DNA of 56,688 nt, filler included, from Dugesia japonica (taxonomy: Eukaryota): the NCBI GenBank assembly GCA_001938525.1. It is 5 parts of 5 records of this genome, joined end to end, with 100 filler letters (N's around TTAATTAATTAA, not from the genome) between each part and the next. Parts side by side here need not be neighbours in the genome. Positions count along the whole stretch, not along the records: positions 1 to 15,166 come from MQRL01617580.1; positions 15,267 to 24,446 come from MQRL01301504.1; positions 24,547 to 33,232 come from MQRL01642190.1; 2 more parts are not named here. One strand, written 5' to 3'. The notes below the pieces were generated by a model. That model made no database searches. It had not been told where the DNA came from and worked only from the letters and a program-made list of their open reading frames with translations. Both the position numbers and the translations under genes were made by a program. Shown in pieces: positions 6,986 to 44,350 of the stretch (its first letter is position 1; the number at the start of each line of letters is the position of its first letter).

Positions 6986-7700
6986 AGCAGATAGATTATA
7001 ACGCATTGGATCAGTCCCATCCCCGTCGACAAAGTAGTCCAGAGATTTATGTGATCTAGAAGTGTAGGATTTTGATTACGATAAAAATATTTTTGATTTC
7101 AAATTTTTTAGATCGAACTTTCGCTCGGTAAGTTAGAAAATGCAAATATTTGGTTCAAATTTCTTCGGCGAATTTTTATGGTATGGTTTCAGATTTAGTA
7201 TAGATGAATGTAAAATTAAAAACTAAATGATTTGCTGTATAAATATTTTTAGTTTCCAAGAAAAAGGTAGTAGGAAAGGAATTTTCTGACCCAATAATGA
7301 TTGTATCACTTTGAACTTGGTATCATTAGACTTAAAATAAAAAGTTTTCTATAAATTGTTTAAAGGAACTATAGTAAAAAATGCATCGTTCAGGAAATAA
7401 TATATAATTATATAATTAATTATAAATTATAATTAAAAGTAACATAATAATAATAATTTTCAAAATATTTTATACCATTCAATTCAGAATTTAACATTAT
7501 AGAATTATAACTTTACTTTTTTCAAAGCATGCTTGTTTCTCAGAAAAGTTTGTAGCGCACTGGATCAGTGCCCCGCCCCATCCCATAGTGATTTAGAAGA
7601 TTTTTAATGAAAACCGGTATCATTGGATAGAGAATTAAAAAGTAAGTCAGGAATTTATCCACGCATTTTTTCTGAAAATGCTTCCTTCCATATAAAAATT
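6986..7700 (+). mobile_element. Fragment of the AGTAGATAGA-terminus non-coding element family (putative Polinton-derived)
   Basis: Starts AGCAGATAGAT...ttggatcag..cccc..gacaaagtagtccagagattt.tgtgatc, homologous to the TIRs of 18642-19157. Carries repeated GGTATCATT(A/G)GA motifs at 7319 and 7616. Confidence 0.55.
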
Positions 7701-7763
7701 AAAAATGCGTAGGCTAATTTAACTATTTTTTAATTAAATTTCAAAATTTTACATAGTAATTAT

Positions 7764-8000
7764 AGTTTTACAATTATAATTACTGCGAGAATAATTTTTG
7801 AACGTTGAACCATTAATCATTTTTGAGATTTCATGAAAATAAAGCTACTATCAAATTTATTTTTGTTTTTAATAATAATTTTAATTTTCGACTTTGTCTT
7901 TGTCAGGAATGGACTTTTTTGTTACTAATTTTTGACTAAGACGAAGTCAAAAATTATAATTATTATCAAAAACAAAAATAAATTTGATCGAAGCTTTATT
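7764..8000. mobile_element. Palindromic (foldback) MITE family copy, truncated at 8001
   Basis: The arms aaagcta.tatcaaatttatttttgttttt.ataataatt..aattttcgacttt and aagtc.aaaattataattattatcaaaaacaaaaataaatttgatcgaagcttt are inverted. The same family occurs at ~22530, 25250, 38125, 43345, 43678 and 47910-48080. Confidence 0.8.
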
Positions 8001-8600
8001 AGTAGATGGATACGTCAACACTGGCTCACCCCCTCTCACCCCACCGACGAAGTAAGTTAGTAATTTGAGTGAACCAGTAATAAAACATTTTTATTGGTCG
8101 TTACGATGACGCAAAAATGTTTTTCGAATTTGGGTTGGAACGGCTGAAAATTTGCTCTTGAAGGTTAAAAATTCGAATTTTGGGTCCATTTTTTTGTACT
8201 ATTTCAAGTTTAGTCTTGTTGAACTAAGAATCAAAACCTAAACATTTATTGCATAGAGTTTGGTGTAAAATTTGGCTTGGTTCTCTCAGAAAAGGTATGT
8301 CAAAACTGGCTCAATCGACATTGATGCATAAATTTCTAAACAAAATCTTATCATATCGCTTTGTAAATGATAATATTCGATTCAAAATAAAATTCTAAAT
8401 ATTTCATGTATATGGTTTGCTGTAAAAATATGCATAGTTCAAAAGATAGAAAATTGCCAGGAGCCATGTCTTACTGAGGGTGAAAAATTATTTTTTCTGG
8501 AAATACTAATGATAAAATAAAAAATTTGGTATTGTTCAACTCAGAAATAAACATTGAACATTTTTCATGTATGATTTGCTATATGAATTGTGAGTATGTT
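8001..8600 (+). mobile_element. Left end of an AGTAGAT-terminus element (putative Polinton-derived)
   Basis: AGTAGATGGATACGTCAACACTGGCTCACCCC resembles the right TIR of 18642-19157 (reverse complement AGTAGATAGATACCTCATCACTGGATCATACCCC). It cuts off the preceding palindromic MITE. Right boundary uncertain. Confidence 0.55.
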
Positions 8601-8900
8601 TTGAAAAGCGAGTTGAAAATTTTATGTGGTTGTTAATCGTTTTTCTGAAAATCTTTTTGAAAAAGATTTAAATTGAAATAAAAAATTAAATGACAAATAA
8701 GGAATTGTTTTAAATTTTGAAATTAAGTTTTGAGAAATGAATTGAAAATTTATTTTAAAATTTGAATAAAAAATCAAATGAATTTAAATAGATTTTAAAA
8801 GATTTTAAGAAACAATCACTAATTTAAAACAGGAATTTAATTTGTTTAAAAACACAATTAGTGTTGTTATAGTTTTGATAATGAAATAACTTTTATAGAG

Positions 8901-11285
8901 TTGAATTTTGATGTTAATAATCCGAGTTCTCAAAACTCATCTAACATGGTGGCAGCGGTAAATACCGATGCGATCACAGAAAGATTGCTGCCAAAAATAT
9001 TTTGCAGAGGCGATGATCTAGAGAAGTTTTTTAAGCGGTGTGAAATATACTTCAAGACAAAGAACATGGTTCTTAAGGAGCGCTTACTAATATGTATGCT
9101 TGATGAAGGCTTGATTGAAGCATATGTAAAAACACTAAAGAAAGCGGATGCATATTGAGAGAGATTTCGATTAGTTTTTTAGAGCAAGAGAGACATAATA
9201 AAAGATTTACAGAATCTTGTAAGCTATCAACGTGATGATGAAGAACTGGAGGTGTATTTTAAAAAAGTGGAAGATTTGGTCGATAAACTTTTCGCAAATA
9301 GAGAGTTGACGAAAGAAAAACTCTTATAAAAAATGCTAATAATTTTTGCAAATAGTAAAAAAGCAGAAGAAGAGATTATCATTCGAAAATTGGAGAAAGT
9401 AGAAGATATAAAAGAAACGTTATCTTTAGTTGAGAAAGTAGAAAGAAGAGAACCCATTAACGTAGTGAAGAGTTAAGTGGGTGTAACACGTGGTAAGCGT
9501 TCCGGAGAAAGGAGACAAAATATGGAGAGAGTTACACAAAGAACAGAACCACAGTGTTGGACATGCCAGAGTTATAGCATACAAAAAGAGAGTGTCCAAA
9601 AAATTCTCATGTGGAATGTTGGATTTGTCACAAAAAAGTGCATTTTAATAGAAATTGTCCTGACAAGTAACCATCAAAATGTTTTGGGTGTGGTAAAATT
9701 GGTCATATCAGAAGTATGTGCACAGAAATTGTATGTGGTAGATGTAAAAAACCAGGTTACAGAGCAGAAGAATGTTATTCANNNNNNNNNNNNNNNNNNN
9801 NNNNNNNNNNNNNNNNNNNNNNNNNNNNNNNNNNNNNNNNNNNNNNNNNNNNNNNNNNNNNNNNNNNNNNNNNNNNNNNNNNNNNNNNNNNNNNNNNNNN
9901 NNNNNNNNNNNNNNNNNNNNNNNNNNNNNNNNNNNNNNNNNNNNNNNNNNNNNNNNNNNAAATGAGCAAAGTTGGAGAAAAAGTTTACAGATTCCTGAAA
10001 AGAGAAAGTTTTAATGATGCGGAAGTTAACAAAGCATAAGTGATAAGAAAATTTGAAGAGAAACAGAATGTAAACATTTTGCATGATAAAATGCAACGAA
10101 AAAACGTAGCATTTCAGTGATGATCAAGGGTGAACCATTTGATTATTTGTTAGATACAGGAGCAAGAATAAATGTGATGAGCCTGAAAGCATTTAATAGA
10201 CTCCGAGAAACAATGTTAGAGAAAAGCAAAAAACGGTAGCATTGCTCAAATAACAGCTCGTTGGAGACGATTGGAAAGATACTTGTAGAAGTTGTAGTTT
10301 CAGAGGTGTGTAAGGAAGTAAAATTTATAAAAGTAGAAAAATTAATACCAAATCTAACTTGTGGAGTTAAATTTCAGAATACTTTTGGGTATCATCCTCA
10401 ACAAAAGTACAAGATAGACATCAATAATCATCGAGAAAGATTTGTTTGCAACATCAAGGGAAAATCTGGAAGGCAGATACAAACGGGTGAACGATTAAGA
10501 CATTCAATAGAGATTTTAGAAATTAAAAAAGATCATAAATTGACTGCGATTATTCAGAGTACTGAGGATGTTTCTATATCGCATAAATGGGTAATTTGAT
10601 GCACACACTTACCGAAGCATCGAATAATCACTAAAAGAGGTCAAATCAACATAAAACCGTATCGCCAACCACTGAGTCAAGAGGAGAAGATTGAAGAGGC
10701 CATTAAAAATATTTAAGATTATGGTATCATCCGGAAATGTAATTCGCAATGGAATATGCTATTAATCTGTGTAGGGAAAAAGGAAAAAAAAGAATATACG
10801 ATTATTCTTAGACTTTAGACAGCTCAATGCAATAACAGAAAGACAAGCTTTTTCTATGCCAAATGTGGACGAAATGCTATATGCTTTGGAAGGTACACGG
10901 TATTTTAGCTCAATAGACTTAGGAAATGCATACTATCAAGTNNNNNNNNNNNNNNNNNNNNNNNNNNNNNNNNNNNNNNNNNNNNNNNNNNNNNNNNNNN
11001 NNNNNNNNNNNNNNNNNNNNNNNNNNNNNNNNNNNNNNNNNNNNNNNNNNNNNNNNNNNNNNNNNNNNNNNGAAAAATAAAAGGAGCGATGGTTTATCTA
11101 GATGATATTCTCACATTTAGCGAAAGAAAGGAGCAACATTACGAAATAAACAATAAAGTATTAACAGAAATTAAGAAAGCTGGTCTTAGAGTTAATTCAA
11201 TTAACTCAAAAGAAGATCAAGTCTTTGGGACTTGTTATCAGTAAATAAGGGGTCAAAACAGATCCAACTAAAATAGAAGCAATTA
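8901..11285 (+). mobile_element. Ty3/gypsy relic: gag (four CCHC knuckles), protease, reverse transcriptase
   Basis: Knuckles CWTC..H..EC, CWICHKKVHFNRNC, CFGCGKIGHIRSMC and CGRCKKPGYRAEEC at 9556-9780; protease DYLLDTGA at ~10141; RT motifs LDFRQLN, MPNVDEML..L.G.RYFSSIDLGNAYYQ, MVYLDDI (~11090) and KTDPTKIEAI. Many stops and frameshifts. Confidence 0.93.
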
Positions 11286-11289
11286 CATT

Positions 11290-12337
11290 GAACATAAACA
11301 TATTAAAATCCTGCTAATGACAACATTAAACACTGGCAAAATTCAAATTTATAAAATTTGTAGACAAAATTTTGATAATAATTTAGAACATACAAATTTA
11401 AATTACAAGATTTATTCATTACACATAATTTTTTCTAATAGTACATATTTTTCTAGACTTAATTCGGTTAAATTACATTACCAAAAATACATCTTATACA
11501 TTAAAATACCATTACTTTCATTAAATTCATCAATTTAAGCAATATACATAATTTTTTCCAAAATAAATATTTAAAAAAATTATGACGTCATAACCACCGG
11601 ACAGAAAAATTTCAAATAAATCTTATAAAATACGATAATTAATTCTCTTTCCANNNNNNNNNNNNNNNNNNNNNNNNNNNNNNNNNNNNNNNNNNNNNNN
11701 NNNNNNNNNNNNNNNNNNNNNNNNNNNNNNNNNNNNNNNNNNNNNNNNNNNNNCACATTTGACAACCAACATCTTCCACTCATGTTACCTCTCCAACAAA
11801 TCATTAACCAAGAAATTCCATCTACCACATACAAACCTACAACCTCCATAAAAACTGCACACGATAACTCATACGACTGTGCCGTGTGCCACCACCCTTG
11901 TAGTACGAACCATCCATCCAAACTCATAAGTCCTTTAGACAATATATAGACCATATCTATATCCAACAACAACCAAATCTTTAAAACAACAAAAAAATTA
12001 TCTCCAAGATCTCCAGCTCTTCCTCCTCATTTTTTACACTCTTACACACACACAAACACAACTTGACCTACTTTTTAAAAACCACCTTAGCAACCCAAAC
12101 ACACACAAAATGTAAAAATACACACACACTTTCAGGATCAAAAAAACTGATCTGATAAAAAAATTGATCCGATCAAAATTTTTTGATCCCAAAAATCTTA
12201 GAAAAAAACTAGCACAAAAATCAAGTATAAAAATGCATATCAAGCGCAATGGGTTTCCGAGCCCCCCACGGGAGCAGGGGGTAATTTAGAAATTGGGCCC
12301 GAATTAAATTGTGCCCGTGTGCCACTATCTATCTACT
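11290..12337 (-). mobile_element. Terminal segment of an AGTAGATAGATAG element (putative Polinton TIR region)
   Basis: Ends in ...GCCACTATCTATCTACT at 12337, nearly the same terminus as 31053 (AGTAGATAGATAGTGGC). Shows strong C/A strand skew. 11578-11653 resembles 3143-3220. Confidence 0.5.
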
Positions 12338-12999
12338 ATATATATATCTTAAATAACTTGACACTCATACATCCAAAAAATGTTTTAACTAAACCATAAA
12401 GTTTTTCATCTTATTTCGCATCCAACGAATCGAAATCTGTTGCTAAAACCTTTAAATAATTGTAAAATTATAAAGTTAAAGAATTTAAACATTAAAAAAT
12501 TAAAAAATTAAAAAAATATTGTTACTCTTATTTTTAAATTACCAAATTTTTAGAACACGTCTTTGGCGAGTGAATTTTGTGTAATATAAAAAGACGCCGG
12601 TTTCTTAATAGTAATCCTTTATTCAATGTACAGACAATAATTTTATTCTGATTTCAATAGAACGAGATTAAAAACCGTTCAATAACTTTTTATAAAGAAA
12701 ATTATAAACCAAATTCAACAGTCACACGCAAATTTTAGACCAGTGAAAACTAAAATAAATATATTTTTTAACTGAAATGTAACGATCAATCGAATTACAA
12801 AATTTTGTACCCACTTTACCTGTTGGGTAGGAAGCAGACCGAGTACACTGATATCTAACTACTTGAGAAGAAACACCACTAAGCAGTTTCATCAGGTATA
12901 ACCAGGAATTGTAAGCAATACATTGGGGATTCAGTTGCTACTTATTTGATGTTCACTTTANTTAAAAAATAATTTTATAATTATTAATTTTCTAGAGTA

Positions 13000-13850
13000 T
13001 CGTAGTACATACAATTCGATGTTTTTTTGATCCAAGAGAAAATATGACAATTTTTGTTCAACACAATTGTTCAAAACCGAATAATGAATCAGAAAATTGT
13101 GGTAACAAATACGTAGAGTAAATATTTTCATTAATTCAATAAATCTTTTAAAATGTATTTCAATTGTAATATAATATACAAGAAAAAATATACAAGCACA
13201 ATAATAAATATATAACGACTTTGAACCGAAACTATACCAAAAATCGGATATATTTGCTTAAAATATACCCAATCTTTGTATTTATCCACTTTACTTTCCC
13301 ATTTAAATCTAGTTATTTATGAGTTCAATTATAAATTGTAATTGATGTTGCTTGTGCAATAATTCAATGTATCTAGTAAATGATCATTCAACAATAATTA
13401 TAATAGTTTTTCTAACTTAATGTTCCATACCTTTACGAAAATTACTATCTATGTTACTGGCAACTGTATTTATCTCACAACATTCTTTTCAGTACTTTTC
13501 TATCTCAATATATTGTTACTNNNNNNNNNNNNNNNTACTTAGATCTATTAAAGTCTGTCCAATATAGCTTGGTCGATTATAACATAGAATCTCCTTATCG
13601 AGTTTGACTCCTATTAAATAATTATCAATTTATATTTTTCATCTTGCTTATTAGGAATATGTTATTAACGTTTTGGTTGAATTGGTTTTTCTTAAATTTA
13701 TCTATTTATTTCAAATGTCTACAGTTTTTCAATGAAGGCTATTATTTTTTGTAATTTTTTAATTTTTTTAAAATTAAACAGTAATGCATCTTTGTGACGT
13801 TAACACCTAACTGTAAATACATTTTCAGCATCATCCAGTACATAATTGAT
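13000..13850 (-). pseudogene. Second, heavily decayed Polinton-type pPolB fragment (polymerase domain)
   Basis: Minus-strand pieces MLKMYLQLGVNVTKMH, NNSLH*KTVD, IGVKLDKEILCYNRPSYIGQTLIDLS, QYIEIEKY*..EINTVASNIDS and LLDTLNY...RFKWESKVDKYKDWVYFK are collinear with KLLNNALYSKTVEN, LEKDTICLDKPSYIGQVVLDLSK, HYEELEKY..IIAGNTNS and LLDTSNY..LFKDEGEGEDYTEWIFLR in the pPolB at 53745-56688. Confidence 0.85.
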
Positions 13851-14454
13851 TAATTGATTAAATTATTATATTATTTCTAGGCGGAAAGATGAAAATAATA
13901 GAATATAATAAAAAGAGAGATGGGGATACAAAGAGATGGGGATACGAGATAAAATTAATTCAAGAGTTATTTTAGAAAATGACAACTGAAAAGAAAAATG
14001 TGGGAGGTCGGAATAACCATCAAAAATTTTAATACAGAAGAGACAAAAAGAAGATATTTGAAAGCTATAAAAAAATTTGACAAAGAAAGCTATGTCAAAA
14101 TTATGCCGCCAAAATGGAATTGTATAAGAAAACGAATGAAACAAGAATCAGAACTTAAAGAGTGGTAAAAAATGTTTAAAGTTTTAACAGAATTTAGACA
14201 AATTAAAAATGTTTTAAAAGAAAGTATTGAAAAAGTTTAAAGAAGAATTTACAAGTTATTAAAGGAATCAAAATTTTTTGAAGGAACTTAAAAGAATTAA
14301 AAGAAATAAAATGTATTGAGAAAAGAATAAAAGAGATCCTAAGAATCAAAGGTGAAAACGAAAGGATTGAGTAATTCGTAAAGTTATTTGAAAAGAAGAG
14401 AATTTAAAGAAATATCAAGGCATCCGAAAATAATTTATTATAATAGTAGATGCA

Positions 14455-15166
14455 AGAATTTGCAATTACTATCGAAAGTTTATTAAAGGTTTGTCAAAAA
14501 AAGCTAGATTTCTGGAACAGCTGTGTATTGGTCCGACTAACAAGAAAATTGAATGGGCAAATGAATTAGAAGAAGTTTTTATTGGGATGAGAGAAGCAAT
14601 AATGATGTCTCTAATATTATGTTTTCCAGATATAAATAGAGTATTTATTTTGGATAGGGATGCGATTTTTGATACTATTTGGGTAGTACTATCTCAAATA
14701 GACAACAATAGACAAAAAGAGTAATTGCATATGGGTTACACACATTAACGAGTCATGAAAAACGAATTTTGTAAGTAGAAAAAATTACTCGCAACTTACT
14801 ACTTCTGTATTTATTTCAAACTTATATGAGAAGAGATTTATGTTACAAATGCGGATATGTTGTTAAGGTGTAAATGCGATACATGTGCACAATGTCTAAT
14901 GTAACATAAACATCTCAAAAGTGGAAAATTAAAAATATAATTTAAATACAATAGATATTCAAGAAAATACATGGCAATTTTGGTGAGAATAATGAAGGGA
15001 CATGAAAACCTGATGATAAATTAGAAGAGGTTATAATGAAGATACACATATTTTGTGTATAAAGCAAAAATATAATGTGAAACATTTATGGAACAAAATA
15101 CAAGAGGTTTTACGAAGGTGTATAACATGCCAGAAAACTTAACTGTTAACAACAAAAACGAAAGAA
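14455..15166 (+). mobile_element. Ty3/gypsy pol relic (RT thumb/connection, RNase H, start of integrase)
   Basis: YYRKFIKGLSKKARFLEQLC..KKIEW...ILCFPDINRVFILDRDA..DTIWVVLSQ, then NADMLLRCKCDTCAQCLM*H. Same family as 1453-2600. Confidence 0.88.
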
Positions 15167-15266
15167 NNNNNNNNNNNNNNNNNNNNNNNNNNNNNNNNNN
15201 NNNNNNNNNNTTAATTAATTAANNNNNNNNNNNNNNNNNNNNNNNNNNNNNNNNNNNNNNNNNNNN
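15167..15266. other. Artificial contig spacer N44-TTAATTAATTAA-N44
   Basis: The 12-mer at 15211-15222 has stops in all six frames. The identical 100-nt structure occurs four times in the window. Confidence 0.95.
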
Positions 15267-15935: not shown

Positions 15936-16495
15936 TGGAAATAGTGAAAAAAATTTATAATATTCACTCACTGACTCACTTTGGAATGTTAGCAAATAAG
16001 TAAAAAGAAATCAATACTAATTTGTATAAGTTTGTTGGAATTAGAAAACTGATATACTATAATGGTTATTGGTTAAATAAGCGTTATTAGACGATTGGAA
16101 AACTCGCGAAAGCTTAACATTTCATTAACACCAACATACAATCAAAAAAAGAAATTATTTGTTACACGTTAAATGACATGCAAAAATTCCAAACTTTCAC
16201 TCATGTACATAAACATACATTTAATTACACGTAATTAACATTAAAATTGATACATTTAAACAATCTAATTTACATACTGATATTTATTTAAAAGTATTTG
16301 TATTGAAAATTTTAAATTTTAATTATTATTTTTATTAATAAATTATTTCAGGATAAAATTTAAAAAATTTATTCTGTAATGTGAGGAAAATTTTTTATTT
16401 AAAAACATGAAATCAAATGACTAAAAATTCAAAGAAAGTAAAATTTGTGTTATAATTATTATTAAATCAAAAAGAAAAGTATAAAATAAACTAAC

Positions 16496-16656
16496 ATTTT
16501 TCAAATTGTCAACTTCAAACAAAAATTTTAAGCTAGCGGAAATGTTAATTCTTTCTCCATTAGCTAAACATAGAATTTGTGAATCATCAAGAACGGTATT
16601 TAAGTTTTCAACCCATTCGGAATCGATTGGACCATCCAAAACTATCCATTGACTGT
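16496..16656 (-). CDS. DNAH14: Axonemal dynein heavy chain exon (AAA2 Walker B region)
   Basis: (D)SQWIVLDGPIDSEWVENLNTVLDDSQILCLANGERINISASLKFLFEVDNLKN. AG acceptor at 16657-58, GT donor at 16494-95. The DNAH14 subtype call is tentative. Confidence 0.92.
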
Positions 16657-16704
16657 CTAAAACAAGAGAATTAAAATAAACTCCTAAAATGAGTAGTACT
16701 AAAC

Positions 16705-16807
16705 CTTTTCGCAATTTTCTTGAAAGAACTTTATCGTCTTTACTGAATTGATTTTTCAAAACATCTTGAATAGGATCTATTGATTCAATTGATAATCTAG
16801 GCGCAAC
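16705..16807 (-). CDS. DNAH14: Dynein heavy chain exon (AAA2 insert)
   Basis: VAPRLSIESIDPIQDVLKNQFSKDDKVLSRKLRK. AG at 16808-09, GT at 16703-04. Phases match both neighbours. Confidence 0.75.
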
Positions 16808-17780
16808 CTATACGAATAACTCAACTCATTAACAAATCAAATACATAAATTCAAAAATAAAGTTTAAATTATAGAGGTTGGAATTTCGGCAATATAAATT
16901 ATTACAAAAGATATTTTGTATAATTATACCAGGATCTCAAATAGTTATTTTTTAAAATTTTAATTTAAGTTGCGGAATAATTGGAAAAATATCAGTTAGG
17001 TAATGTTCTTCCGGCCTTGGTTTAAATTCCAATGAAAATGTTTTCAATTTAAACAAAACTTAATAAAGAAAACATAAAAACAAATATTTAATATTAATTG
17101 AAATTTATATAACTAATAATGAAAATAAGTATTTAAACGAAAAACCATATAGTATTAATAACGATTTAATAAAATTAATTAATATTTTATACGTAAATTA
17201 ATATATATGTACTAAACCAATAATTAAAACACTAAATTCTGCAATAAAGTGGTTAAAGTAATATATTATGTCAACACAAAAATCAAACCGAATTCTCTTT
17301 CATTTAAACTGACCAAGCCGAGGAAATTATTGACTAAGATTGCCCATATCGATGAAATATTTGACGAATTCATCTAAAATCATCTAAAAAATATACCGAA
17401 TGGACCTCACCGAGTAAATTTTGTCGTATAAAATGCCTAAAAAATGATACCTTTTAAGAAGCCTGGAAAATTTTGACCCCCTTAAAGCTTGAAAAATCTT
17501 TGCTAATTAAAAGCATATGAAAAATTTAACACCGCTTTTAAAATTTTTTTCAAAACATAGCACCTCTTTTAATTTATTTTTAAAAATTAGTGATTAATAT
17601 GAACATTTTAGCTTGCTTATATTTGAAAAATACAAATTTTCTTGGATTTTTAATTTTTTTAAAATCCACTTTTATATGGAATGGAGTAAGTATATTGATA
17701 AATCGATATTTTCTTTAAATAATCTGTATTTTCCAACACATTACAAATCTAAATATAAATTGTATTCAATTAACAATTAC

Positions 17781-18092
17781 CGATAACCGTCTTAATAAAG
17801 TCACATTCAATAGAGAACTTCGACGTCTTCCTTTATTTTGATAACTTTCTTCGGAAACCGAAGTCACTTTTGAATCAACATTATCGTTTTCTGAATTTTC
17901 AACTATTTGTTGATTATCAATATTTTGTTGATTTTTATTGGCAATTGAAATCATTTTTTTGGTTACTAACGGAATAATTCCTTCAACCCATTCAAATGAA
18001 TTCGGATTAACATATCCATACAAATGATTTATTGAAATAGCTTTAGGATTGATGACTTGAACATCAATTTTCGCGCGACGACCAGATAAGAT
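17781..18092 (-). CDS. DNAH14: Dynein heavy chain exon (AAA2)
   Basis: ILSGRRAKIDVQVINPKAISINHLYGYVNPNSFEWVEGII...RRLS contains the dynein motif INPKA....LYG.....EW.(D/E)G. AG at 18093-94, GT at 17779-80. Confidence 0.9.
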
Positions 18093-18140
18093 CTGAAAGC
18101 AACTTTATTGAACTCAACAAATCAATTAAAGATAGCATAC

Positions 18141-18259
18141 TTGATTACCCTTACCGTTTTCATCATAATTCTTACTTTTTGTTTTATTCGATAATTTTAC
18201 CAACGGTAATAAAGTTAATGCCTTTTGTAAAATCATACGAATTACAGTCTTACCACTAG
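18141..18259 (-). CDS. DNAH14: Dynein heavy chain exon (second half of AAA2 P-loop)
   Basis: (A)SGKTVIRMILQKALTLLPLVKLS..., which splices in phase 1 to give GPSASGKT. From memory, GKT..R.IL.KALTLLP resembles DNAH14. 48-nt intron at 18093-18140. Confidence 0.88.
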
Positions 18260-18459
18260 CTGAGAAACAATTATTATTACTTTTATTTTTAAATAATTTG
18301 TCAAAATAAAATTATTAAATTTGAATTGTGTAAACATTTTTTTATTAATTACTAATTAAACTCCTTTTATTTATAAGGTATTTCAAAACGTCTTTACCCT
18401 TTTTCATAATTAAACTTTAAAACAATAAAGTATTTTAAAAAATTATTTATTTATACAAA

Positions 18460-19900
18460 TAAAACCCATCAGAATTTCCCACTTCTTGTCAAGGTTTTGA
18501 TAAAAAAAAATACAATCACGATAGAAACTTGAATTCTATTTAGATTCAAAGAATTCATTGATTGCAAGAATGACCTCAAGACAATTTTTGTACTTTTTAC
18601 ATACAAGAAAATTTGACAGATAAAAAAGATGGTTAATCGGAAGTAGATAGCTTCGTTTCCCCTCCGCTGACAAAGTGATCTAGGAATTTTTGTGATCCAA
18701 ATATTTTGTATTTTAATCGGTTGTTACGTTTTAGTAAAAAAATTTTCGATTTCGAATTTTGATTGGTTAAAGGTTTGCCCAGGAAGATTGAAATTATGTA
18801 TTTTGGTTTCGACATTTTTCGGTCAAATGTTATCGTATAGCTACGAATCTGGTATCGTTAGATAGAAAATTAAAAACCGTATTTGTGTGCAGCACTTAAT
18901 CACTTCGTCTTTAATTTTTTCAATTAATAATGATTGTATGATGATAAATTTGGTAAATTCAGAAAAGAAACTACCTATTCAAAACGAAAATACCGAATTC
19001 CAACTTTCCCGAGCATTTTTTTGACAAAACCTTTGAAATTGAAAATGTTTTCTACTGAAAAATAACGACAAATCAAAATCCAAAAATTTTAGATTACAAA
19101 AATTCCTGGATCACTTTGTTGGCGGGGTATGATCCAGTGATGAGGTATCTATCTACTAACAGGAGGTAAAATGTCTGGGCTATATGGTGGATGCTTTAAA
19201 GCTTTTCAATCAAAACTTGTGAATTTTAATTGAGTCAACCGGGAAANATGAGGCTTTGCGTTATCCTGCTAAACAATTACCCCAATTTCAATTAATTATA
19301 CTTGGTTGCTTTTTGAACAATTCTGAATGAACTCGGTCTATTTGTTGTCAATAAACATTGGCATTGATTTCCTGATCACGTCTTAAGCAGTCCCAATATA
19401 TAATTTCACTTGCTGACCATCAGACACTAAGTAAAATCTTTGAATGGATTAAGGGTTTTGGAAATTGGTTAGAGGTTGGACCAGGTTTTATCCATAAAAA
19501 TTTATTATGAAGAATTATTATAGAGAACTCACTTTTCGTCTACAGTAATTATTCGCTCAATTATGGATTAATTTTTCTTGCCATGAACAAAGAAGAGCAA
19601 AAATCNATTCGTTGTTTTCGTTAAAAATCACTATAAAACGTGAAGCACAATTTTTGTCAAAACATTTGGTAAAGCCTAGGAGTTTCAAATGATTTCTAAT
19701 GATGACAAGTAAGGTCTAAAGATAGTTCTTCTAATGTTGCTCTTAAGCAATTTATAATGTTTATGTTTTATAATTACAAAAAACGACATTAATATTTGAT
19801 TAATTAACACACATACAAAATCAAATAATTTTAATTTTGTCTTAAATTTTAAACAAAACATTTTTTGCATAATAATATTGATTTTAAAAAGTCATCCTCA
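18460..19900 (-). mobile_element. mariner transposase relic, split by an insertion at 18642-19157
   Basis: RIITVDEK, I.WDC, QDNAKPH and HPPYSPDILPP lie on one side of the insertion. SD.HLF..LSNFL and FFESK..FYR continue on the other. Confidence 0.8.
18642..19157. mobile_element. 516-bp non-coding TIR element with AGTAG...CTACT ends (putative mini-Polinton)
   Basis: Left end AGTAGATAG...ccgctgacaaagtgatctaggaatttttgtgatc; right end reverse complement AGTAGATAGA...ccgccaacaaagtgatccaggaatttttgtaatc. Sits inside the mariner YSPD..PSD motif. TSD degenerate (aatcgg/aacagg, offset by one base). Confidence 0.8.
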
Positions 19901-19949
19901 GTTTAAATACAAAAATCAACTTCAAAACCAATTTATTCATCAATTAGAT

Positions 19950-20365
19950 CAGTGCTTCGCCACCTGTGTGCTATGGCACATAGGTGTGTCGAGGTCAAAT
20001 AAAAAAATTCTAAGTAAAGAATTGTTCAAAGGTTCTATCTTAGAAACAAAATAACGGGAATAAGTTCAATAAAGAGAACACATATAATTAAAAGAATTTT
20101 CAATAAAAAATCATTAAGAATTCGAATATAAAACTTTTGTGAACATTGAAGCAAGCGCAGATATCACATTAATCAGTTATTATTCTATAATAATTAAAGA
20201 GATTTCATAAAAGAAAATATAGTGTGGTTTTATGCATGCTTACTTAATAAATTAAAAAAATTTATGTTTCAAATTATTATCGATATAGTTTAGTTTTTTT
20301 ATGAACCGCTGAATTGTGGAAAAAACTTTAGTGTGTCTTAGACGAGAAAAGGTTGTGTAGCAGTG
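19950..20365. mobile_element. hAT (Charlie-type) MITE with perfect 8-bp TSD
   Basis: Imperfect TIRs CAGTGCTTCGCCACCT and AGGTTGTGTAGCAGTG. TSD AATTAGAT at 19942-19949 and 20366-20373. Confidence 0.88.
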
Positions 20366-20789
20366 AATTAGATTATGTCATTACATTTTTCCCTTTTAAT
20401 ATACATCCTCAGTAGATTAATTAGGCAATTTGGAAAATTTTTTGAAAAATCACTTAAACTATTTTATTCAAATTTTTTTTACAAAAAGCTTTAATGTCAA
20501 TAATTAAAGCAATGATATTAATTTTCGTTGAAAATTCCATCTTTAATTATTCTTCATAATTATCATCGTACTCTTTAATTGACCTAGCTACACTTTTCTA
20601 CTGATAAGATATGTAGGAATTCAAGAACAATGATAATACTAGCTTATCTCATTATCTATTTAAATAGTGTAATCTCAGACGTGGAAAAATATTCTTCAAA
20701 GATGCCTGGAAAGTTCTTTCGATTTTTTACTATGCAACAAATTTTTAAACACAGAAAGTCTTTATTCTAAAACACATTAGCCATTATTA

Positions 20790-21380
20790 TAGACAATTTG
20801 TTGCCATCTCTCAATCAATATCATGATTCCTTCTTTAAAAATTTCTGATTTAGTTTAGCAAAAATGCTTCCAAGTAAGTTTTGATATTGTCATCTAAAGT
20901 AAAGGTTTCCCCAGCAAAATGTTTTTGCAGAGACCAAAAAAATAGTAGTTTGGTGGTGATATATCAGAATTATTCTGTGGGCGAGGGGGCAAATTCCTTT
21001 CAAGATCTGATAAATTTTGTCGAGTCTTCAAAGATATGTGAGGTTTTGCGTTGTAGTAATGGAAAACAACACCTCCACGATTAACTTATTTTGGTAGTTT
21101 CCACTGCAAGAAATCATTTAATTTGTTTAATTGCTGATAATAAATAGTTTTGTTGATTGCTGTGTTAATCACCACATTGAAAATATAATTTTTTTCCTGG
21201 TAAGTTTCAGCTTTTGGTGCTTTTTGAGGTAGCTCATCAGAATTGGACCATGATTGAATACAATCCATTTATCATCGCCAGTGAAAGTTTCTTCAAAAAT
21301 GGGTCAATCTGATTACTTGTTAAGAACAATGATATTGGGAGAGAATGATGTGTAAAAGTTTGTTGATAATGACATTAAAT
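20790..21380 (-). mobile_element. mariner transposase relic in a dynein intron
   Basis: DPFLKK..TGDDKWIV, IYYQQLNKLN, VVFHYYNAKPH and SDISPPNYYF..SLQKHF. Confidence 0.8.
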
Positions 21381-21636
21381 CCTAAAATGAATTTTAAGTT
21401 GACGGATTCAACGTTGACCTTAAAATTATTTTACTGTTTATTTATTGGGATTACTCCATTGAAATTACGTAATCATTTTTAAATTTTTAAATAGTGTTTT
21501 TTAATAATATTTTAGTTGCTGATGATTGATGGTTATTTTGTCGAAATTAAGTTTAAATAAATATTTTGTTATTAATATTGAAATAGTAAAACGAATATTA
21601 TACACTTAAGAAGCACCAAAAACCATTTCGAATTAC

Positions 21637-21760
21637 CTGATGGTCCAAGTAACATAACACCATGTCTTGACTTTAATTGAGAATTAAGATGCTTGATTTT
21701 CTCTATTTGATCAGGCCATATTTCATATCCCAATTCTCTATAACTCATTTCAATACTTTT
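21637..21760 (-). CDS. DNAH14: Dynein heavy chain exon (start of AAA2)
   Basis: KSIEMSYRELGYEIWPDQIEKIKHLNSQLKSRHGVMLLGPS contains the RHGVM.LGP motif. 42-nt intron upstream (21761-21802); GT donor at 21635-36. Confidence 0.92.
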
Positions 21761-21802
21761 CTAAATTTTAAAATTATTTTTTATCAAAATTAAATAAATC
21801 AC

Positions 21803-22310
21803 CTCTAATATTTTATCATTTTCTAAATTCTCTTTAAAATTTCCAAACAGATCATTCATGATAGAATTGAATATCGGTAAATCATCGGTAATAAGTCTCG
21901 GAAGATTAGAGATTTTTATCGCTTGTATTAGAATGCTCATTTCGTCACTGCCAGTTAATTGTACATTGTCAGAAACCAAAACCTTTTCAAGTCTCAAATG
22001 ACCAGTTAATATAAGAACAGATTTTATAGATCTTAAACCGAAATCATAATGTTGTTGGTTTGATAATTGATCATTGCATAAACGATAAAGATTAGTAATT
22101 TTACTGCTTAAGATTTTTGCAGTGATAAAGCCTTCTGAGAATAAAATAACTTCACAAATCAACACATAATCTGGCACCATCATAGCTACGGGCCGGAAAA
22201 GAAAGTTTAAATTATCAGGTAATTCTACTCGNNNNNNNNNNNNNNNNNNNNNNNNNNNNNNNNNNNNNNNNNNNNNNNNNNNNNNNNNNNNNNNNNNNNN
22301 NNNNACAAAT
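21803..22310 (-). CDS. DNAH14: Dynein heavy chain exon (AAA1 C-terminal part; spans an N gap)
   Basis: RVELPDNLNFLFRPVAMMVPDYVLICEVILFSEGF...QLSNQQHYDFGLRSIKSVL...SNLPRLITDDLPIF..IMNDLF. Probable AG acceptor at 22311-12, GT donor at 21801-02. Confidence 0.95.
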
Positions 22311-24446
22311 CTAAAGTGAAATAAACATATCAATTTATTAATTTTATTTTGATGTTTAAAGAAAATTATAAATTGCAAGTATTTATTATTTCTAATAAAT
22401 TACTCTAAAATTTTGATAAATTAAATTTACCAATGAAATTTTAATTTTAATAATTCAAATGTTCGATTATTGATTGGTTTATTCAGAAATTCCCAAAGAA
22501 AACAATAGTGGCAAATTCGGATAAGTACCAAAAGAATAAAAAAACAAAACAACATTTTGATCGAAACTATGAATTTAATGAATTCTGAAATACGATCGAT
22601 ATTTAAGTCCAACAATTATTCTCGCAATAATAGTAATTGTAAAATGCTTAAATAATACATTAAAAATTACCAATTTCCAAGAAAGTGGCTTTATGAAATT
22701 AAAATTCATTTGTAATCCAATAATTCACCTTACGATGATAATAATTGTAAGATTGTTTTTAAAAGCGGATTTAAATTTTTTATAGTTTGAAACGGAATTT
22801 ATTAAAATCAGATTTGTTAAATATTTTATTTAAATCATTAAAATGGGTTGTAAAATAAATTTTTAATTTTTATTTAATTAACAGTTTAAAGCAAACGAAT
22901 TTTAAAATTTATTTTGTTTTTTAGAAAACGAAATTTTAAATTTGTTTTCAGAAAGCGAATTTAAATCTAAAATGTCATTTACAATGTATATTAAAATTTT
23001 ACTGTAATTTATAAAATTATTAAATTTACTTTTAAATTTGAAATTATAGTTTTTATTGAATGTTTTACGTTATTTATTAAAAGTTAAAATAAACTGAATT
23101 AATGACATATTTTTAAATTAACTGAAATTTTTGAAATTTCCTTTTATAAAAAAAAATTTTCAATTTTTCATCTAACAATAATATCAATATTTCTTTTACT
23201 AAAAAAAATTAAATTGCATATTAGAATTTTCAAAAATATTTTTTAAAATATTTACGTTTAACTTTTTCTGAGTTATCCTGATTATAAGTACACCCAATTA
23301 TGTTTTTACATGAAATTTTTCCAAGCGATTTTGATTTAACACAATTTAGAAATAAATTTTATTCTCTTTTTACAAGACTTGTTTTTATTTAACACGATCC
23401 AAAGGGTTGTAAATATACATGAGTAAAATATATTCTAGTCAATTTTCAGTAGAAGACAATTCCCATAACAAAATTTTAATAAGCAAATATTTTTGTATTA
23501 TACATACATAATAAGTATCTATTTGTTCTTGGATTTTATCAATGTAGCATAATTAATAATCTGTGGCATTATAATTATTTTTAAAATGAAAATAATTTTA
23601 TTTATCAAAGTTTTAATTAATTAGGCTACAAATATAAGATGAATTATAACATCAAACACAAAATCGGGTTTATAATTTCAATTAGATTATTTACAGAATC
23701 AAATTTTTGTTTTAACATTTAAAGTTATAAAACTTTTTAAAAAAATATTGTAAACATCATATAGATTTTTTACTTTTAGAAGTGGTCAATTTTATAGAGA
23801 TGGTCACCAAAATAGGGTGTTCACCACGTGGAAGTGATCACTTTTGAGAGGTTCTTTTTTTATCTTCTACTTTTGAAATTTGAGGAAAAAATAAATTAGG
23901 AAATTAAGTAATATTATTATTTTAAAATTTTATTATTTTGGGAAAAATCTAAATATTCATTTGATCTAAAACATGCATAATTCATAATTTTAAACAACTT
24001 AAAATGCGTTTTGTTGACATTTTTTTAAAAATCAGTTTCTTAAAAAAGAAGTGATCTTATCCTTTTTAGTGCAGTTACTATCGATAAAATCATTATACGT
24101 AAAATTCTTTTCTTTGCTTTTTCATTGAGGTAATTATGCAAATGAATAATTTGGAGGTGTAAACGCGACTAATTAAAGACAACAAAGAATTGTGAAACTA
24201 AAAGTTTTCTGAATGAAGATCATCCAAGAAAATATTCAAGGTATTTATGAGGAAATGTGTGATTATTGAATGTTTTAAGTATTTTTAATTTTTATTAGTA
24301 TGTTATTAATTAAATTTGATTAATTTATTTTAAATTAAAGAAACGTTTATTTTAATATTATATACGGCAATTTTTTTAAAAATTAGTTGTAAATTTGGTG
24401 TCTTTATTAGTTTAGAATTCAAATTTTATTGATAAAAATGTATTTT

Positions 24447-24546
24447 NNNNNNNNNNNNNNNNNNNNNNNNNNNNNNNNNNNNNNNNNNNNTTAATTAATT
24501 AANNNNNNNNNNNNNNNNNNNNNNNNNNNNNNNNNNNNNNNNNNNN
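24447..24546. other. Artificial contig spacer
   Basis: N run, TTAATTAATTAA (24491-24502), N run. Confidence 0.95.
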
Positions 24547-24689
24547 GGATAGGTCTAGAATATCCCAAGCCATCTTTTGATTACTTTTGGCCTCAGCAAT
24601 CATTAAATGCGGCAGTATGTTTTCTTTATCGCTTCTTAATCTAGCTTGGATGCGATATGGTTATACACTTCTAAATTACTAGTGAAATT

Positions 24690-25140: not shown

Positions 25141-25249
25141 CAATAAATTCAATTTTAGAACGAATTTCAGTTTTGTTAAAATTGATCTAGCTTTGCTCCC
25201 ATTGGGTTTTGATCGATAACATATTTTATGAATCTATTTAAAAGTATTC

Positions 25250-25500
25250 ATTAAAATAAAGCTTTGATCAACATTGGTTTTGGATAATAATTCTAATTTT
25301 CGACTTTGTCTTCGTCAAGAATTGACTTTTTCAATTTTTTTTTTCAAAGTCAATTCCTGACGAATATAAAGTCGTAAATTAGAATTATTATGAAAAACAA
25401 ATTTTGATCGAAGCTTTTAATTTAAATGAATTCTGAAAATCGATCAATGGTTACGTTCAACAATTATTTTCGCAATAATTCTATTTGTAATTGTAAAACT
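25250..25500. mobile_element. Palindromic MITE family copy
   Basis: Hairpin centred near 25337 with arms ataattctaattttcgactttgtcttcgtcaagaattgacttt and aaagtcaattcctgacgaatataaagtcgtaaattagaattat. Confidence 0.8.
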
Positions 25501-26490
25501 ATTTAAAATTACCCGGGCAGAATTATAATCAATTTCCAACACAATTGCAGCCTCTTTNATCGATTTTCCCTGCTCCAAAACAAGTCGAATGAGTTTTTTT
25601 CATTAGTCATTTGTTATTTTAGTAAATGTTATCAGATGATCTGCATATGCATTATCTTTAGGTATATCACTATGGAAGGGACAAAAAATTTGTCAGCAGA
25701 TAAAAGCGAAAAAAGGAAATTTAACATTTAGTATTTTTAATTTTATCAGTTTTAACAGTTTACAATTGTGTCTGACAAATGTTACAATTGAAAGGAAAAT
25801 GGTATAAGCAAATGAGCAAACTTTATGATCAAAATGGAGGTCCTGTAAAAAGGAACAGACGGTTAATAAAAAAGGGCATATGGAGACAAGATGAAGGGAA
25901 TAAAAAGGACATAATACGAACGAGGGGGATAAAAAATTACATAAAGGGACAAGGGGAGGGGAGATAGCACATTGCTTTTTGACGTCCTTAATGAATGATC
26001 CGTAAGAATGGTAACTAAAAAATAATTGTCCGCAGCCCACCACCAGAAACTAAGATACCCTAATACATACACGAAATAACAGTGGTTAAACCGTACCGAG
26101 CTAGCTAGGACATAAAACCATGAACGAAGAATTGTATTTTCTTTTAAAAATATAACGGTATTTATAGTGATGCATATGAAACAAAATTGTATCTAATAAA
26201 TAAAACCCAGATACAATTTTAACGAATTACAATAAAATAATTTCTAGTAGAAAATAACTCCGTTACCCATAATTTTATGGATTATTTAATTATTACTTAC
26301 AAAAATAATTATTCACAAAATATATTTCAATTAAAACTATTATAAAATACAGAATTAGATTTAAAATTTATTTTAACGTTTAAATTTATCATTAGTAAAA
26401 ATTATTTAATTAAAACGTATTTTTACAAGATTTATAATTCTCAAAAGCATTAATAATTAATAATATTTCTTAAACAATTATTAATATTAC

Positions 26491-26956
26491 CGGATCAGTG
26501 AAGACAGATTTGATATGTGATAATACTGCCATTAGGGCTAGAGAATAAAATATAAATCCATTGATGAATCGAAAATAGTTGGAATCAACCGGTATAAACA
26601 CAACAAATAGAAATACAAAACAAGGATGTAAAATTAGTAGCCAAGTGAAGAGAGCACAAATACTTCCACATATATCAGAATTACACCACATGTACCGATC
26701 AGAGTTTTCAAGAGATTTAATTGAGCCTGGTTTATCAAACAGCCATCCAGTACCACAACAATAACAAAATTCAGTTATTTTTTTACAAATATATCTTCGT
26801 TCAGAATTGTTGGAAGGAATCAAAGGGCTCTCTGGTACAGTAATCTGATTACTGGAATTATCTGCATCTAAATTTATTAGTGATATATCTATTTCATGTG
26901 TATTTACTTTTATCGTTGAATTGCATTGCAAATCCTCTTGAGTAAAGATTATTTTC
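26491..26956 (-). CDS. Exon of a ZDHHC3/7 (GODZ)-like palmitoyltransferase (N-terminus, TM1-TM2)
   Basis: MWCNSDICGSICALFTWLLILHPCFVFLFVVFIP...FINGFIFYSLALMAVLSHIKSVFTDP matches the ZDHHC3/7 pattern W...D.CG..CA..TW.L....NG..F..LA..A..SH...TDP(G). GT donor directly after TDP (26489-90); probable AG acceptor at 26957-58. Confidence 0.9.
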
Positions 26957-29039
26957 CTAGCAAAATTACAAATTAATTATTCAAAATTATTATGAAAGCA
27001 TTTAGAGTCGGATAATTGTCAATATAATAGTGAATTTTGCGCAATATTTGTTAAACTAGCAACTAATTAAATTATTCTAATTAAAAGTTATTATAATAAA
27101 TTTATATTATTAAATAATTTCTTTAGTTGTACGTATATTAAAACAATAGTTGTTTAACAATTCGTTATTATAAATAATTTTAATATAATTTTAGAATCAA
27201 CTTTTATGTTACTTAAATCATGTATCACAAAGAAATTAAAACTGCTTATTTAAAATTAAGTTTACTTAATTTTCAAGATTAATTTTATTCTAAAGCAGAA
27301 AATTAACCATATAAGTTGACAATCATCTTTTTCATAAAGTGCTGCTAATTCATTCTAAAATATAACAGATTAATGATTGCATTACATTGATTAGTAACAT
27401 AATTTAACCGGGATTGTCCCGGCTTCATGGAAATATACATTTTATTCCGGTTTCCACAACTCAATTTTTTCATAAAATGACTAAAGACGTTTATTAGTCA
27501 TTTTTAATTTTGGATAAACATATTTTATGAATTGAGAGGTTTCGTTGAGAGACACCAGTGTGTATAAATTGAAATATGTATAAGTATTTGATTTTTTTAC
27601 TAAAAAAAGTTTTAATAACAGATTTTTGATTTTTGACAATGTTGGGTATTTCTACTCAACAAGTTATTTATGGTTCGTTTATTTTATAACTACTGATAGA
27701 TAATATGTCTGTGAATTTACGGGTGTTGATTTTACCCTTTATATGTCACTACGATATTATATAAATGATATTTTATCAAAAGTATAAATATGGTGATATA
27801 ATGTATTTTCCCTATATAAGTAAATGAAAATGATATACCTTTTAAAATTTATTATTTGTATATAACAATATGCTATAACTTATAGGCCTTATTAGCTTAT
27901 TTTATATCTAGTTGGAGATGCCGCCCAGAGAGGTTGGATTCCAACAGATTAAAGTTTACTGAAAAATAACTAAAATTGATCAGTATTTATACTGATTTTA
28001 GTTACGTAGGCCATTATACACACATATACACATAAATTTTATCGTAGATGATTTGCTCACAGAATAAAATATCAACTTTGATCAATCATCCAAAAAATAA
28101 TTATTACATATATTTTTTCTTTTTTAAATCAAGATTACTATTAAATATTTTCACAACAAAATAATCAATATTTACAACAGACCGATAAAATAATTAATCG
28201 CAAATTAACTGAAATCAAAATATTATTAAAATTAATGTTAAAAAATAAAATAGAATAAAATTAATGTTCAAAAATAAAATAGAGTCCAAGTATTATTGAA
28301 TTTCGAGTTTATCAATTAGATCTTGAATTGAATCGCATGATGTATCGAATGTTGATTCCGACAAGATTGATGTTCATTCGAATTTATCAGATATTGAATC
28401 GAATCGCATGTTGTATTGAATGTCAAATAACGATTGATGTTTATGTTATTGTTTTTGTTGTGTTTGTTTTGTATGCATGTTTGTGTTGTGCTATGTAGAT
28501 CTCAACAACAAAAATGTTAAAATAAAACACTACACATGAGCACAAATTTAAAAACAAAAGCAAACCAAAAAAACAATAACTATATAGACTTATACTTTGT
28601 TATTCCTTTGGCCAATTCAGTTGTCACCTTGAAATCCAAAGGGCAACTTGTTGAAAAGTGGTTAGTTGTTACATTTATTGTATTTTCACGTGTACGAACT
28701 TTTCACATTGTTTCCGTTTTCTGGTTCAGCGTTCATGTAATTTATTAATTTTATCAAGTCGCTCTTAATTATTGTTAGTTTTATTTTGAAAATGGTATTA
28801 TCATGAAGTGAAAGTTTTGTTACCAACGAATCTTTGGTTTATCTATAGCCAAGCTAGCTCAATCAGTTTTCAAATTTTAAAAATTAAACAAAAAAATATT
28901 GAAATAAATAATAAGCTGCTTTATAACTCAATTTAAATAGTACAGGCAATAGTTGAAGCTGAAATAAAAGATATTGATTGGAAATCAAAAATCGACTCGG
29001 AAAAGTAAGGTATTTTTCCATAAAATGGCTAAAGACTCT

Positions 29040-29135
29040 ACGAAGCAAGATACACACAACGCCAATGTCGAGCGCATTTTTTCTATGATGGATTAACGAA
29101 AGAAATTTGTTCTCAGTAATACAGTTAAAGAAGGG
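29040..29135 (+). mobile_element. hAT dimerisation-domain relic
   Basis: HNANVERIFSMM followed by ERNL.S. Confidence 0.6.
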
Positions 29136-29649
29136 ACCAGCAAATTACCAATTTGGCTTCGAATCGTATTCCGAATTAATTCATAACAAATTATAAATTT
29201 TATTTTGAATTGATTCTCAAATTGAATTGCTAATCCAATGATTATATAAATTTTGGTCCAGTATATTTTGTATAGTATAATTTAATGCCAAATTAATTAA
29301 ATTTAAAAGTAAACACATAAATATTTTATCGAATAAGTCAAACTTATAATCTATAAAACTGCTAATGTAGTTCATCACATTGAAATTTCTAATTTAACGT
29401 TTTAAAATTATATTCCATCAGATAGAAATTAAAGTCAACACATACAATTTACAATTTTTTAACTACACGTATTGATACGCTGCGATATACAAAAACCATA
29501 TTTCAGGTTAAAATTCCTCTCCAGACTTAATTATGTTCTGGTTTGGCTAGCTTGATAGATTTATAAAATAAACAAAAAGAGTAAAAAAGAAAATGGCGGG
29601 ATTTAATTGGAACCCTAAAAGGTTTCATCCACGTCAGACATTTCAGGTC

Positions 29650-31018
29650 TGGAGTCTTTGAATTCTAAAATCTTCAGAATACCAGCTTGCCCGTTGTGGA
29701 ATCTCTAAAGATTGCTCGACTAGGCTATGCACTTTCTGATCGAGACAAGAGTTAATTTTGTGATTGTAATAGCGTGGAACCCAACATGTTTAAGCACAGG
29801 CTTATTTTCTACGCACCACGATCCCAAACACCCGATTGAGATCTTCTCAAGGATAACTTTCCATTTGGGTAAGTTTTCTAAATTTCCTCCTTGAGTAGTG
29901 TGTATTTTGCAATGTTCAAGTTCCTCGCTAATTTTAAATTACTGGATGTGTCATAGGGAGTCTTTACATCCCGTATTATTACTCTCTTACACTTGCTATT
30001 TATTAGTTGCAAGTCAACGTGACCAGTCTTGTTAACAAGGCGACAGGTCTGTTCGACAATGACTTTAAAGCAAATGTTGGCTCTAATAAACCTAGCGAGC
30101 AGAGAAGATCATTGTGTCGCCATGATTTAAAAGCTGAGGAAGGGTGGCAATGACACAAGACAAGTGCTTGAGTTTCCAAGTGGTATCCACACTTTCGGAA
30201 GGATTTGGATAACATCCCATGGTTGCAACCTACTGGCGTGTGCCCGTCCTTGCTCGGTGTATGAAATCCCATTGATCAGGTTTGATAGAGCCATTGAACA
30301 GTGGTTTGGTGAATAGGGTGGATACCGCGATAGCTGTCCAGTTTTTGTCAAGGCATTCTACTTCCTTGTATTAGCCCAACTGAGAAGATCATGGAGTAAT
30401 TTGGTCATGGCTCTTCGGTTCTTGAAGGAAATCAGATAGTTTCTTTCATCGAAGTAATCAATCACTTGCATGCATACTCCTAGCTCGTTACGTGTGAATC
30501 TGACTTGCAGATGGAGCATTTTGTAGAGGTAAGTGATCGCGTTATGAACTTTAAACCACCAGCATTTGAGTTCTGAATATGTGGTTACAGTGGAGAGTCA
30601 GTCTAGAGCCTCATCAATTGAGAACAACTGGAAACGCTTAAGGTGTTTTGTGGCGACATGAATCAAATCACGGCTGGCTACATTCCGTACGATTTCATCT
30701 GGACATACAAGCATCTTAAATGCCTGTGCCAGATATTGTACAGAGTATTCGTCCCTCGCAGAGTTTAAGCTGACCCCCATAATTTTCGGGAATATAAAGA
30801 TAGTGAGAGGGTGCCCAAAAGTGAACAGAAAGGATTTGCCTTATATTTGTGTGGATGCACATATCGATATCCCAGACTCTATAAGTAACTCCATTTTCGG
30901 AGTGGCCGCTGCAATCGAATTTACTCAACGGAATGTTGAAATTCATGAACGTGAACGAAAACCTTGAGTGGATAAAGGTTCGGTATGCGTGGATTTTCTG
31001 CCAGGGATAGAGAACCGA
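29650..31018 (-). mobile_element. Non-LTR retrotransposon 3' relic with restriction-like endonuclease (NeSL/Utopia/R2-type)
   Basis: LYPWQKIHAYRTFIHSR, YLY.P...G, R.CGYHLETQALVLCHC (decayed CCHC), RHND, NRPV (decayed RPD) and IGCLGSW. Frameshifted and 5'-truncated. Confidence 0.88.
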
Positions 31019-31052
31019 TAATTTTAACCGAATAATTGTAGATTAAAAATAA

Positions 31053-31130
31053 AGTAGATAGATAGTGGCGCACTAAACCACATCCCCGGATTTCAAGGTG
31101 GTTTAGAAATTCGATTTGAAATTTTGGTTT
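31053..31130 (+). mobile_element. AGTAGATAGATAGTGGC terminus (putative Polinton TIR end)
   Basis: Matches the reverse complement of 12321-12337. Confidence 0.55.
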
Positions 31131-44304: not shown

Positions 44305-44350
44305 GTACGTTATCGAATATTTAATTCTTTAATATCTTTTTCGTTTTAAG

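Follow-up and report, generated by a model that had tools for sequence, protein, structure and literature searches.

Dispersed inverted-repeat elements with AGTAG ends in Dugesia japonica: a probable Polinton/Maverick system with miniature non-autonomous derivatives

Introduction

The window analysed here is a stretch of 56,688 nucleotides from the planarian Dugesia japonica (GCA_001938525.1), in which five contigs are joined by N44-TTAATTAATTAA-N44 linkers at 15167, 24447, 33233 and 45232. Its GC content is about 25%, and many decayed transposons are spread across it. Among these lie two relics of a protein-primed polymerase (pPolB), ten short motifs that mostly begin with AGTAG, and two complete non-coding elements of 249 and 516 bp (Table 1). 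Each motif marks the end of a dispersed inverted-repeat DNA element, and such elements fall into several families; with a probability of roughly 0.75, they represent a Polinton/Maverick system with non-autonomous derivatives of the size of miniature inverted-repeat transposable elements (MITEs).

Polintons have been characterised mainly in silico (10.1101/2023.08.22.554363) and their excision mechanism is unknown (PMC2836005). In vertebrate Mavericks the ends read (AGT)2 or (AG)3, with 6-bp duplications and repeats of 46-1447 bp (PMC8097293), and nematode Mavericks have repeats of 100-1500 bp and duplications of 5-8 bp (10.1101/2023.08.22.554363).

Table 1. Termini, complete elements, polymerase relics and adjoining repeats in the window
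Feature	Position	Strand	Remarks
Terminus, decayed (AGCAG)	6986..7012	+	Body akin to 516-bp element for ~240 bp; no partner end found
Internally deleted copy of 6986/516-bp element family, terminal bases lost	7550..7641	+	7616-7641 and 18851-18876 88% alike
Palindromic repeat of another family	7745..8000	.	Homology to sister repeats ends at 8000, where AGTAG end starts
Terminus	8001..8027	+	24/28 bases as in 19157 end; no partner end found
Terminus	12311..12337	-	20/21 bases in common with 31053 end
Terminus, AGTAGTTAGA	12837..12863	-	Interior related to 516-bp element
Small fragmentary pPolB relic	13257..13846	-	Outside 12337 and 12863 ends
Complete 516-bp non-coding element, AGTAGATAG-type	18642..19157	.	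Inverted arms 78% alike over 83 nt; inside mariner transposase relic
Terminus	31053..31079	+	No partner end on its contig
Left target-site duplication CTCTAC	37336..37341	+	6/6 match with right copy
Complete 249-bp non-coding element, AGTAGGTGGA ends	37342..37590	.	46-bp inverted repeats, 96%; inside presumed pogo/Tigger-like relic
Right target-site duplication CTCTAC	37591..37596	+	6/6 match with left copy
Terminus and high-copy repeat boundary	53245..53385	+	18/19 identical to 249-bp element ends; faces large pPolB relic
Large pPolB relic	53745..56688	-	Several stops and frameshifts; PF03175 matches

Results

An initial annotation of the window had listed six termini, at 6986, 8001, 12337, 18642, 19157 and 31053. 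All six carry a related end on the strand given, on three of the five contigs. The exact sequence AGTAGATAGA ascribed to them is found at three (12337 and 19157 on the minus strand, 31053 on the plus strand) and is replaced by AGCAGATAGA at 6986, AGTAGATGGA at 8001 and AGTAGATAGC at 18642. The CAC-type block said to lie behind each end is present as CAC or CAT at positions 19-21 in five of them and is absent from 18642, where there is a short deletion. The distance spanned is 24 kb (6986-31053), on unlinked contigs, instead of the ~31 kb originally reported.

With at most one mismatch, AGTAGATAGAT has 9 matches in the window against 1.05 expected, a count reached in none of 100 shuffles. Three of these matches lie beyond the original six: the one at 12863 was retained, the one at 3739 was dropped because it is not AG-headed, and the near-match at 34995 was dropped because its interior is unlike that of any end. 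A scan of all 110 AG[T/C]AG sites gave a second end type, AGTAGGTGGA, at 37342, 37590 and 53245. Four ends had therefore been overlooked (12863 and 37590 on the minus strand, 37342 and 53245 on the plus strand), for a total of ten. A degenerate 21-base pattern finds 7 sites where 0.01 are expected, a figure that is optimistic because the pattern was fitted afterwards to these same ends. The internal motif GGTATYRTT, which had been put forward as a second recurrent signal, is present but weakly enriched (7 sites where 2.6 are expected; at least as many in 3 of 100 shuffles). Its sites at 7319, 7616 and 18851 stand as given, while those listed at 887 and 8529 start at 886 and 8528. A longer context is common to only three of the seven sites (7319, 7616 and 18851, within related copies), and the motif is ordinary internal homology without support as a separate signal.

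The ten ends align without gaps over ~27 bp, in the register AGTAG-x-T-x-G...CAC. Positions 1, 2, 4, 5, 7 and 9 are invariant, and positions 3, 10, 19, 21 and 27 (the last three as C19, C21 and C27) are kept in nine of the ten; C27 played no part in choosing the ends. AG-x-AG is found in all ten and AGTAG in nine, and the complete AGTAGT in one. The ten positions beyond the ends show no conservation. When eleven candidate ends were compared against a null of 1500 random pairs, the inner 60 nt were alike at p<0.05 in 9 of 55 pairs and the outer flanks in 1 of 55. At 8001 the end cuts the palindromic repeat of another family exactly at position 8000, a point past which the sister repeats continue. 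The gap-free register of ~27 bp, taken with the unrelated outer flanks, identifies the ten motifs as true termini of dispersed elements rather than microsatellites; the homology is one-sided, in contrast with the internal microsatellite, with homology extending on both sides, that the initial annotation had considered. It is hardly credible that the ends are chance matches or relics of GATA-type microsatellites. A 14-bp GATA-rich tandem array does lie at 35410-35930 and the near-match at 34995 lacks interior homology, but both origins are refuted for the ends tested by the shuffles and the one-sided homology, together with the inverted pairing, target-site duplication and depth step described below.

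Four of the ends bound the two complete elements. The perfect 6-bp duplication around the 249-bp element would arise by chance with a probability of about 1e-4 to 8e-4; the duplication around the 516-bp element is decayed, with 3/6 or 5/7 matching bases. Both elements interrupt transposase relics whose reading resumes beyond the insertion with 6-7 extra bases. The relic around the 516-bp element matches PF01359 (5e-15), and across the insertion the sequence resumes HPPYSPD...HLF, which we take to be a mariner motif. The host of the 249-bp element is presumably a pogo/Tigger-like relic, as judged from its motifs and from its resemblance to another relic in the window; tblastn between these two relics gave no match. 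Both elements have the features of MITEs, being short and non-coding, with inverted repeats and a duplication. Their lengths of 249 and 516 bp, instead of 13-25 kb, make them at most non-autonomous derivatives.

The other six ends are unpaired within their contigs. Elements running from 6986 or 8001 to 12337 or 12863 were rejected, the duplication matching at only 1-3 of 6 bases and the arms being dissimilar. A conserved subterminal hairpin was likewise rejected (z-scores +1.36 to -1.83 over the ten ends; longest stems 5-9 bp, null mode 5-6). Leftward from the 12337 end, the interior crosses a CA-rich stretch and reaches a segment of 110 bp with a TGACGTCA palindrome. This segment is present at 11544-11653, ~700 bp inside the end, and again at 3109-3218, the two copies being 82% alike; the former possibly belongs to a long terminal repeat.

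Both pPolB relics claimed by the initial annotation are real and lie on the minus strand. The large one is 35-44% identical to 11 full-length database polymerases, and its contig ends within the gene. None of the six ends first listed bounds a polymerase gene in the window, and the direct tie between them and pPolB that had been proposed is not supported. The end at 53245 faces inward 500 bp past the stop of the large relic; an opposite end would lie beyond the contig. No other site, apart from the 249-bp element's own ends, matches the first 19 bases of that element with 4 mismatches or fewer. TGACA occurs four times in the region inside this end, 53245-53760, together with one TTACGCAA-type palindrome, and an AT-rich palindrome at 53703-53768 overlaps the pPolB stop. 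An rve match at 1456-1920 carries an H2C2 finger and lies within a long terminal repeat (LTR) retrotransposon relic.

Public contigs of the same organism were aligned to 53085-53385 only, from 4 runs covering at most 4 samples and 3 studies, one of them possibly the source of the window. The runs contributed 163, 161, 164 and 38 contigs. In all four, summed contig depth, which is no measure of copy number, rises from 0-21 on the left of 53245 to peaks of 707-1382 on its right, and 15, 9, 12 and 4 contigs have loose ends before 53245, with an agreement of 0.5-0.6. The depth step marks 53245 as a sharp repeat end with many insertion sites. The high copy number proposed earlier holds for the first ~100 bp of this end. 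Of the sequence words of 11760-12950, runs X8-X12 contained almost none, which counts neither for nor against. In two of the four runs, loose ends listed at 53273/53277 represent sister copies with the 53245 interior and an end resembling that at 8001, which links the end type first described to the one beside pPolB. Many contigs have in common a second interior behind the 53245 end.

It is very unlikely that all ends derive from Polintons while the short elements are passive deletion products, formed by repeat-to-repeat collapse, and not mobile satellites. The 249-bp and 516-bp forms are each seen as a single copy, and solo Polinton repeats exist in C. elegans (10.1101/2024.01.15.575659). Such an origin is opposed by the ratio of ten ends to two polymerase relics in the window, by family interiors that are unrelated beyond ~30-50 bp, and by the second interior, which amplified short families predict.

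Discussion

The favoured interpretation is a Polinton/Maverick system with the short elements as probable members; in its workings it resembles a known kind, to which it probably belongs. AG-type ends combined with a duplication of 6 bp are characteristic of Polintons/Mavericks. The ends share with Polintons the AG-starting short terminal reiteration, inverted repeats of at least 46 bp, the 6-bp duplication (at the 249-bp element) and a pPolB gene near an end (PMC8097293; 10.1101/2023.08.22.554363). They differ in reading AGTAG-R, not AGTAGT; in that several end families of one genome have the 27-bp register in common; in the length of complete copies, 249 and 516 bp against 13-25 kb; and in the orientation of pPolB, which here points toward the end, whereas it points toward the centre in most vertebrate elements and outward in the cane toad. 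Of the Polinton-plus-satellite system envisaged in the initial annotation, the dispersed high-copy termini and short non-autonomous members stand, with a sister end in place of the original six beside a pPolB relic.

Several results weigh against this interpretation. The position-6 T of vertebrate AGTAGT is present in only 1 of 10 ends. The small pPolB relic has its nearest ends at 12337 and 12863, both pointing away from it, and no inward-facing end was found there. Beside the large relic, chance alone would place a plus-strand end within 500 bp of the stop ~0.06 times (6 in 54,121 bases; hand arithmetic), so the adjacency is moderate evidence, and a weak off-register AGTAGT on the minus strand at 53462, with unlike flanks, could close a short element instead. 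The contig test reached as far as 53385, 360 bp before the pPolB stop, and most aligned contigs diverge from the window at 53336-53350, ~100 bp inside the end. The window, in which the contig of the large relic breaks off within pPolB, showed no element whose two ends enclose Polinton genes, nor any relic of a Polinton integrase, ATPase, protease or capsid (792 open reading frames of 106 related loci searched). Among these 106 loci with pPolB relatives (80 metagenome, 26 viral) none has the 21-base motif; looser AGTAG matches occur in 15, scattered and mostly distant from contig ends, which need not be element ends. A pattern scan of metagenome contigs gave no match and a single-protein scan of viral contigs no relative, and a stricter motif had 8 internal matches in viral contigs of 40-59% GC, none with pPolB, which were set aside as chance. 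The duplication around 18642-19157, finally, fits 7 bp as well as 6 bp.

Some of these results favour an alternative in which a different cut-and-paste superfamily with AG termini gave rise to MITEs that carry these ends, while the pPolB relics are unrelated neighbours in a transposon-dense genome. With ten ends in 54 kb the adjacency to pPolB may be chance, and the relic without a facing end, the possible 7-bp duplication and the divergence of most contigs inside the 53245 end all fit. We nevertheless regard this alternative as unlikely. Besides Polintons, IS3EU/GingerRoot elements are recorded with 6-bp duplications and Ginger2 with a preference for 6-bp targets, and the termini of all these are TA or TG in the sources consulted (PMC10045372, PMC2836005); membership of these groups was rejected, all ten ends starting with AG. 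Tc1/mariner/pogo membership was rejected as well, since a TA duplication is missing and AGTAG is preceded by C in just one of the ten ends; the right side of the 249-bp element also lacks G-TA. Inside the ends in the window there is no candidate transposase.

Within the favoured Polinton/Maverick system the short elements have precedents. Non-autonomous Polintons are reportedly described by Kapitonov and Jurka in 2006 and in Repbase entries. They are a recognised category (PMC3014272, PMC5499653), and polintons lacking polB are on record (10.1101/2025.02.07.637071). Like these, the Dugesia elements are non-coding or polymerase-less, with Polinton ends, and are presumed to be moved in trans; they differ in being MITE-sized and dense, whereas the known ones compared are kilobase-sized or low-copy. 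No MITE-sized Polinton derivatives were found described in the literature searched, which was without Repbase, supplements and most subscription journals. The criteria by which Repbase classifies a non-autonomous element are the length of its duplication and its first 11 bases (PMC4455052); here 37342 and 53245 are identical at positions 1-11, and 8001 departs from 37342 at 2 of the 11. The elements also resemble cut-and-paste MITEs, which are short and non-coding, with inverted repeats, a duplication and only the outermost bases in common with a coding partner, but the presumed partner here is a self-synthesising, virus-like element and not a simple transposase. The density, the small size and the 27-bp register common to divergent families are the variant worth noting.

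The mode of movement can be sketched from the ends. The ~27-bp register would be recognised by the Polinton integrase, and probably also by the pair of polymerase and terminal protein; integration by a retrovirus-like integrase would leave the 6-bp duplication, and the short elements would be moved in trans by borrowing the Polinton integrase. The initial annotation had placed a sliding-back reiteration at (T)AGA. Across the ten ends, positions 6 and 8 are variable and the AG at 1-2 and 4-5 is fixed, so the candidate repeat shifts outward to AGT-AG. This would permit initiation at base 4 followed by a three-base jump back, as at adenovirus ends (PMC5175343). What recalls the adenovirus and Bam35 origins is the terminal repeat, whose period in adenovirus is three bases (PMC5175343); in the planarian ends only two bases are repeated (AGT-AG). 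Use of both pPolB and the integrase by the short elements is favoured only slightly over excision and re-integration alone. More doubtful is the fuller proposal of several families of Polinton satellites, 0.25-0.5 kb long, which replicate as protein-capped linear mini-replicons before re-integrating and exceed their helper in number by orders of magnitude, with the 27-bp register as minimal origin plus attachment site and a two-base, three-step jump-back on AGT-AG.

If that proposal were true, the satellites would rank with the smallest protein-primed replicons and could drain their helper like defective-interfering genomes. A large number of independent short families, each retaining nothing but the 27-bp register, would map the cis-requirements of the Polinton cycle. 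It would also follow that genome fractions annotated as Maverick, such as the expansion described in Dugesia (10.64898/2025.12.11.693146), may consist mostly of miniature elements. Free linear forms could be sought in the planarian stem-cell model, in which Polintons are targets of PIWI-interacting RNAs (PMC8532177). If the short forms were passive relics only, the finding would amount to routine repeat annotation.

Other features of the window

Axonemal dynein heavy-chain exons, whose best matches are animal, lie on the minus strand at 16424-22400, and the mariner relic with the 516-bp element lies between them. A Bcl-2 family match at 44101-44346 on the plus strand (PF00452, 1.4e-6, slightly below the curated cut-off) is probably a host exon.

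Relics of LTR retrotransposons, with rve, H2C2 and RNase H-like matches, are found at 1456-2600 on the minus strand and at 8862-11290 and 13870-15160 on the plus strand; the last begins beside the small pPolB relic. Transposase fragments are of the FLYWCH (33359-33526, minus strand), mariner (36502-36924, plus strand) and hAT (48225-48485, minus strand) kinds. Immediately outside the 31053 end, a GC-rich decayed coding stretch at 29550-31040 on the minus strand has no Pfam match; by its motifs it resembles the 3' part of a non-LTR retrotransposon. A tandem array of 26/29-bp AT-rich units occupies 37867-38793, and a second dispersed family of fold-back repeats is represented at 7745-8000, 22546-22649, 25243-25510, 38104-38231, 43317-43803 and 48013-48086.

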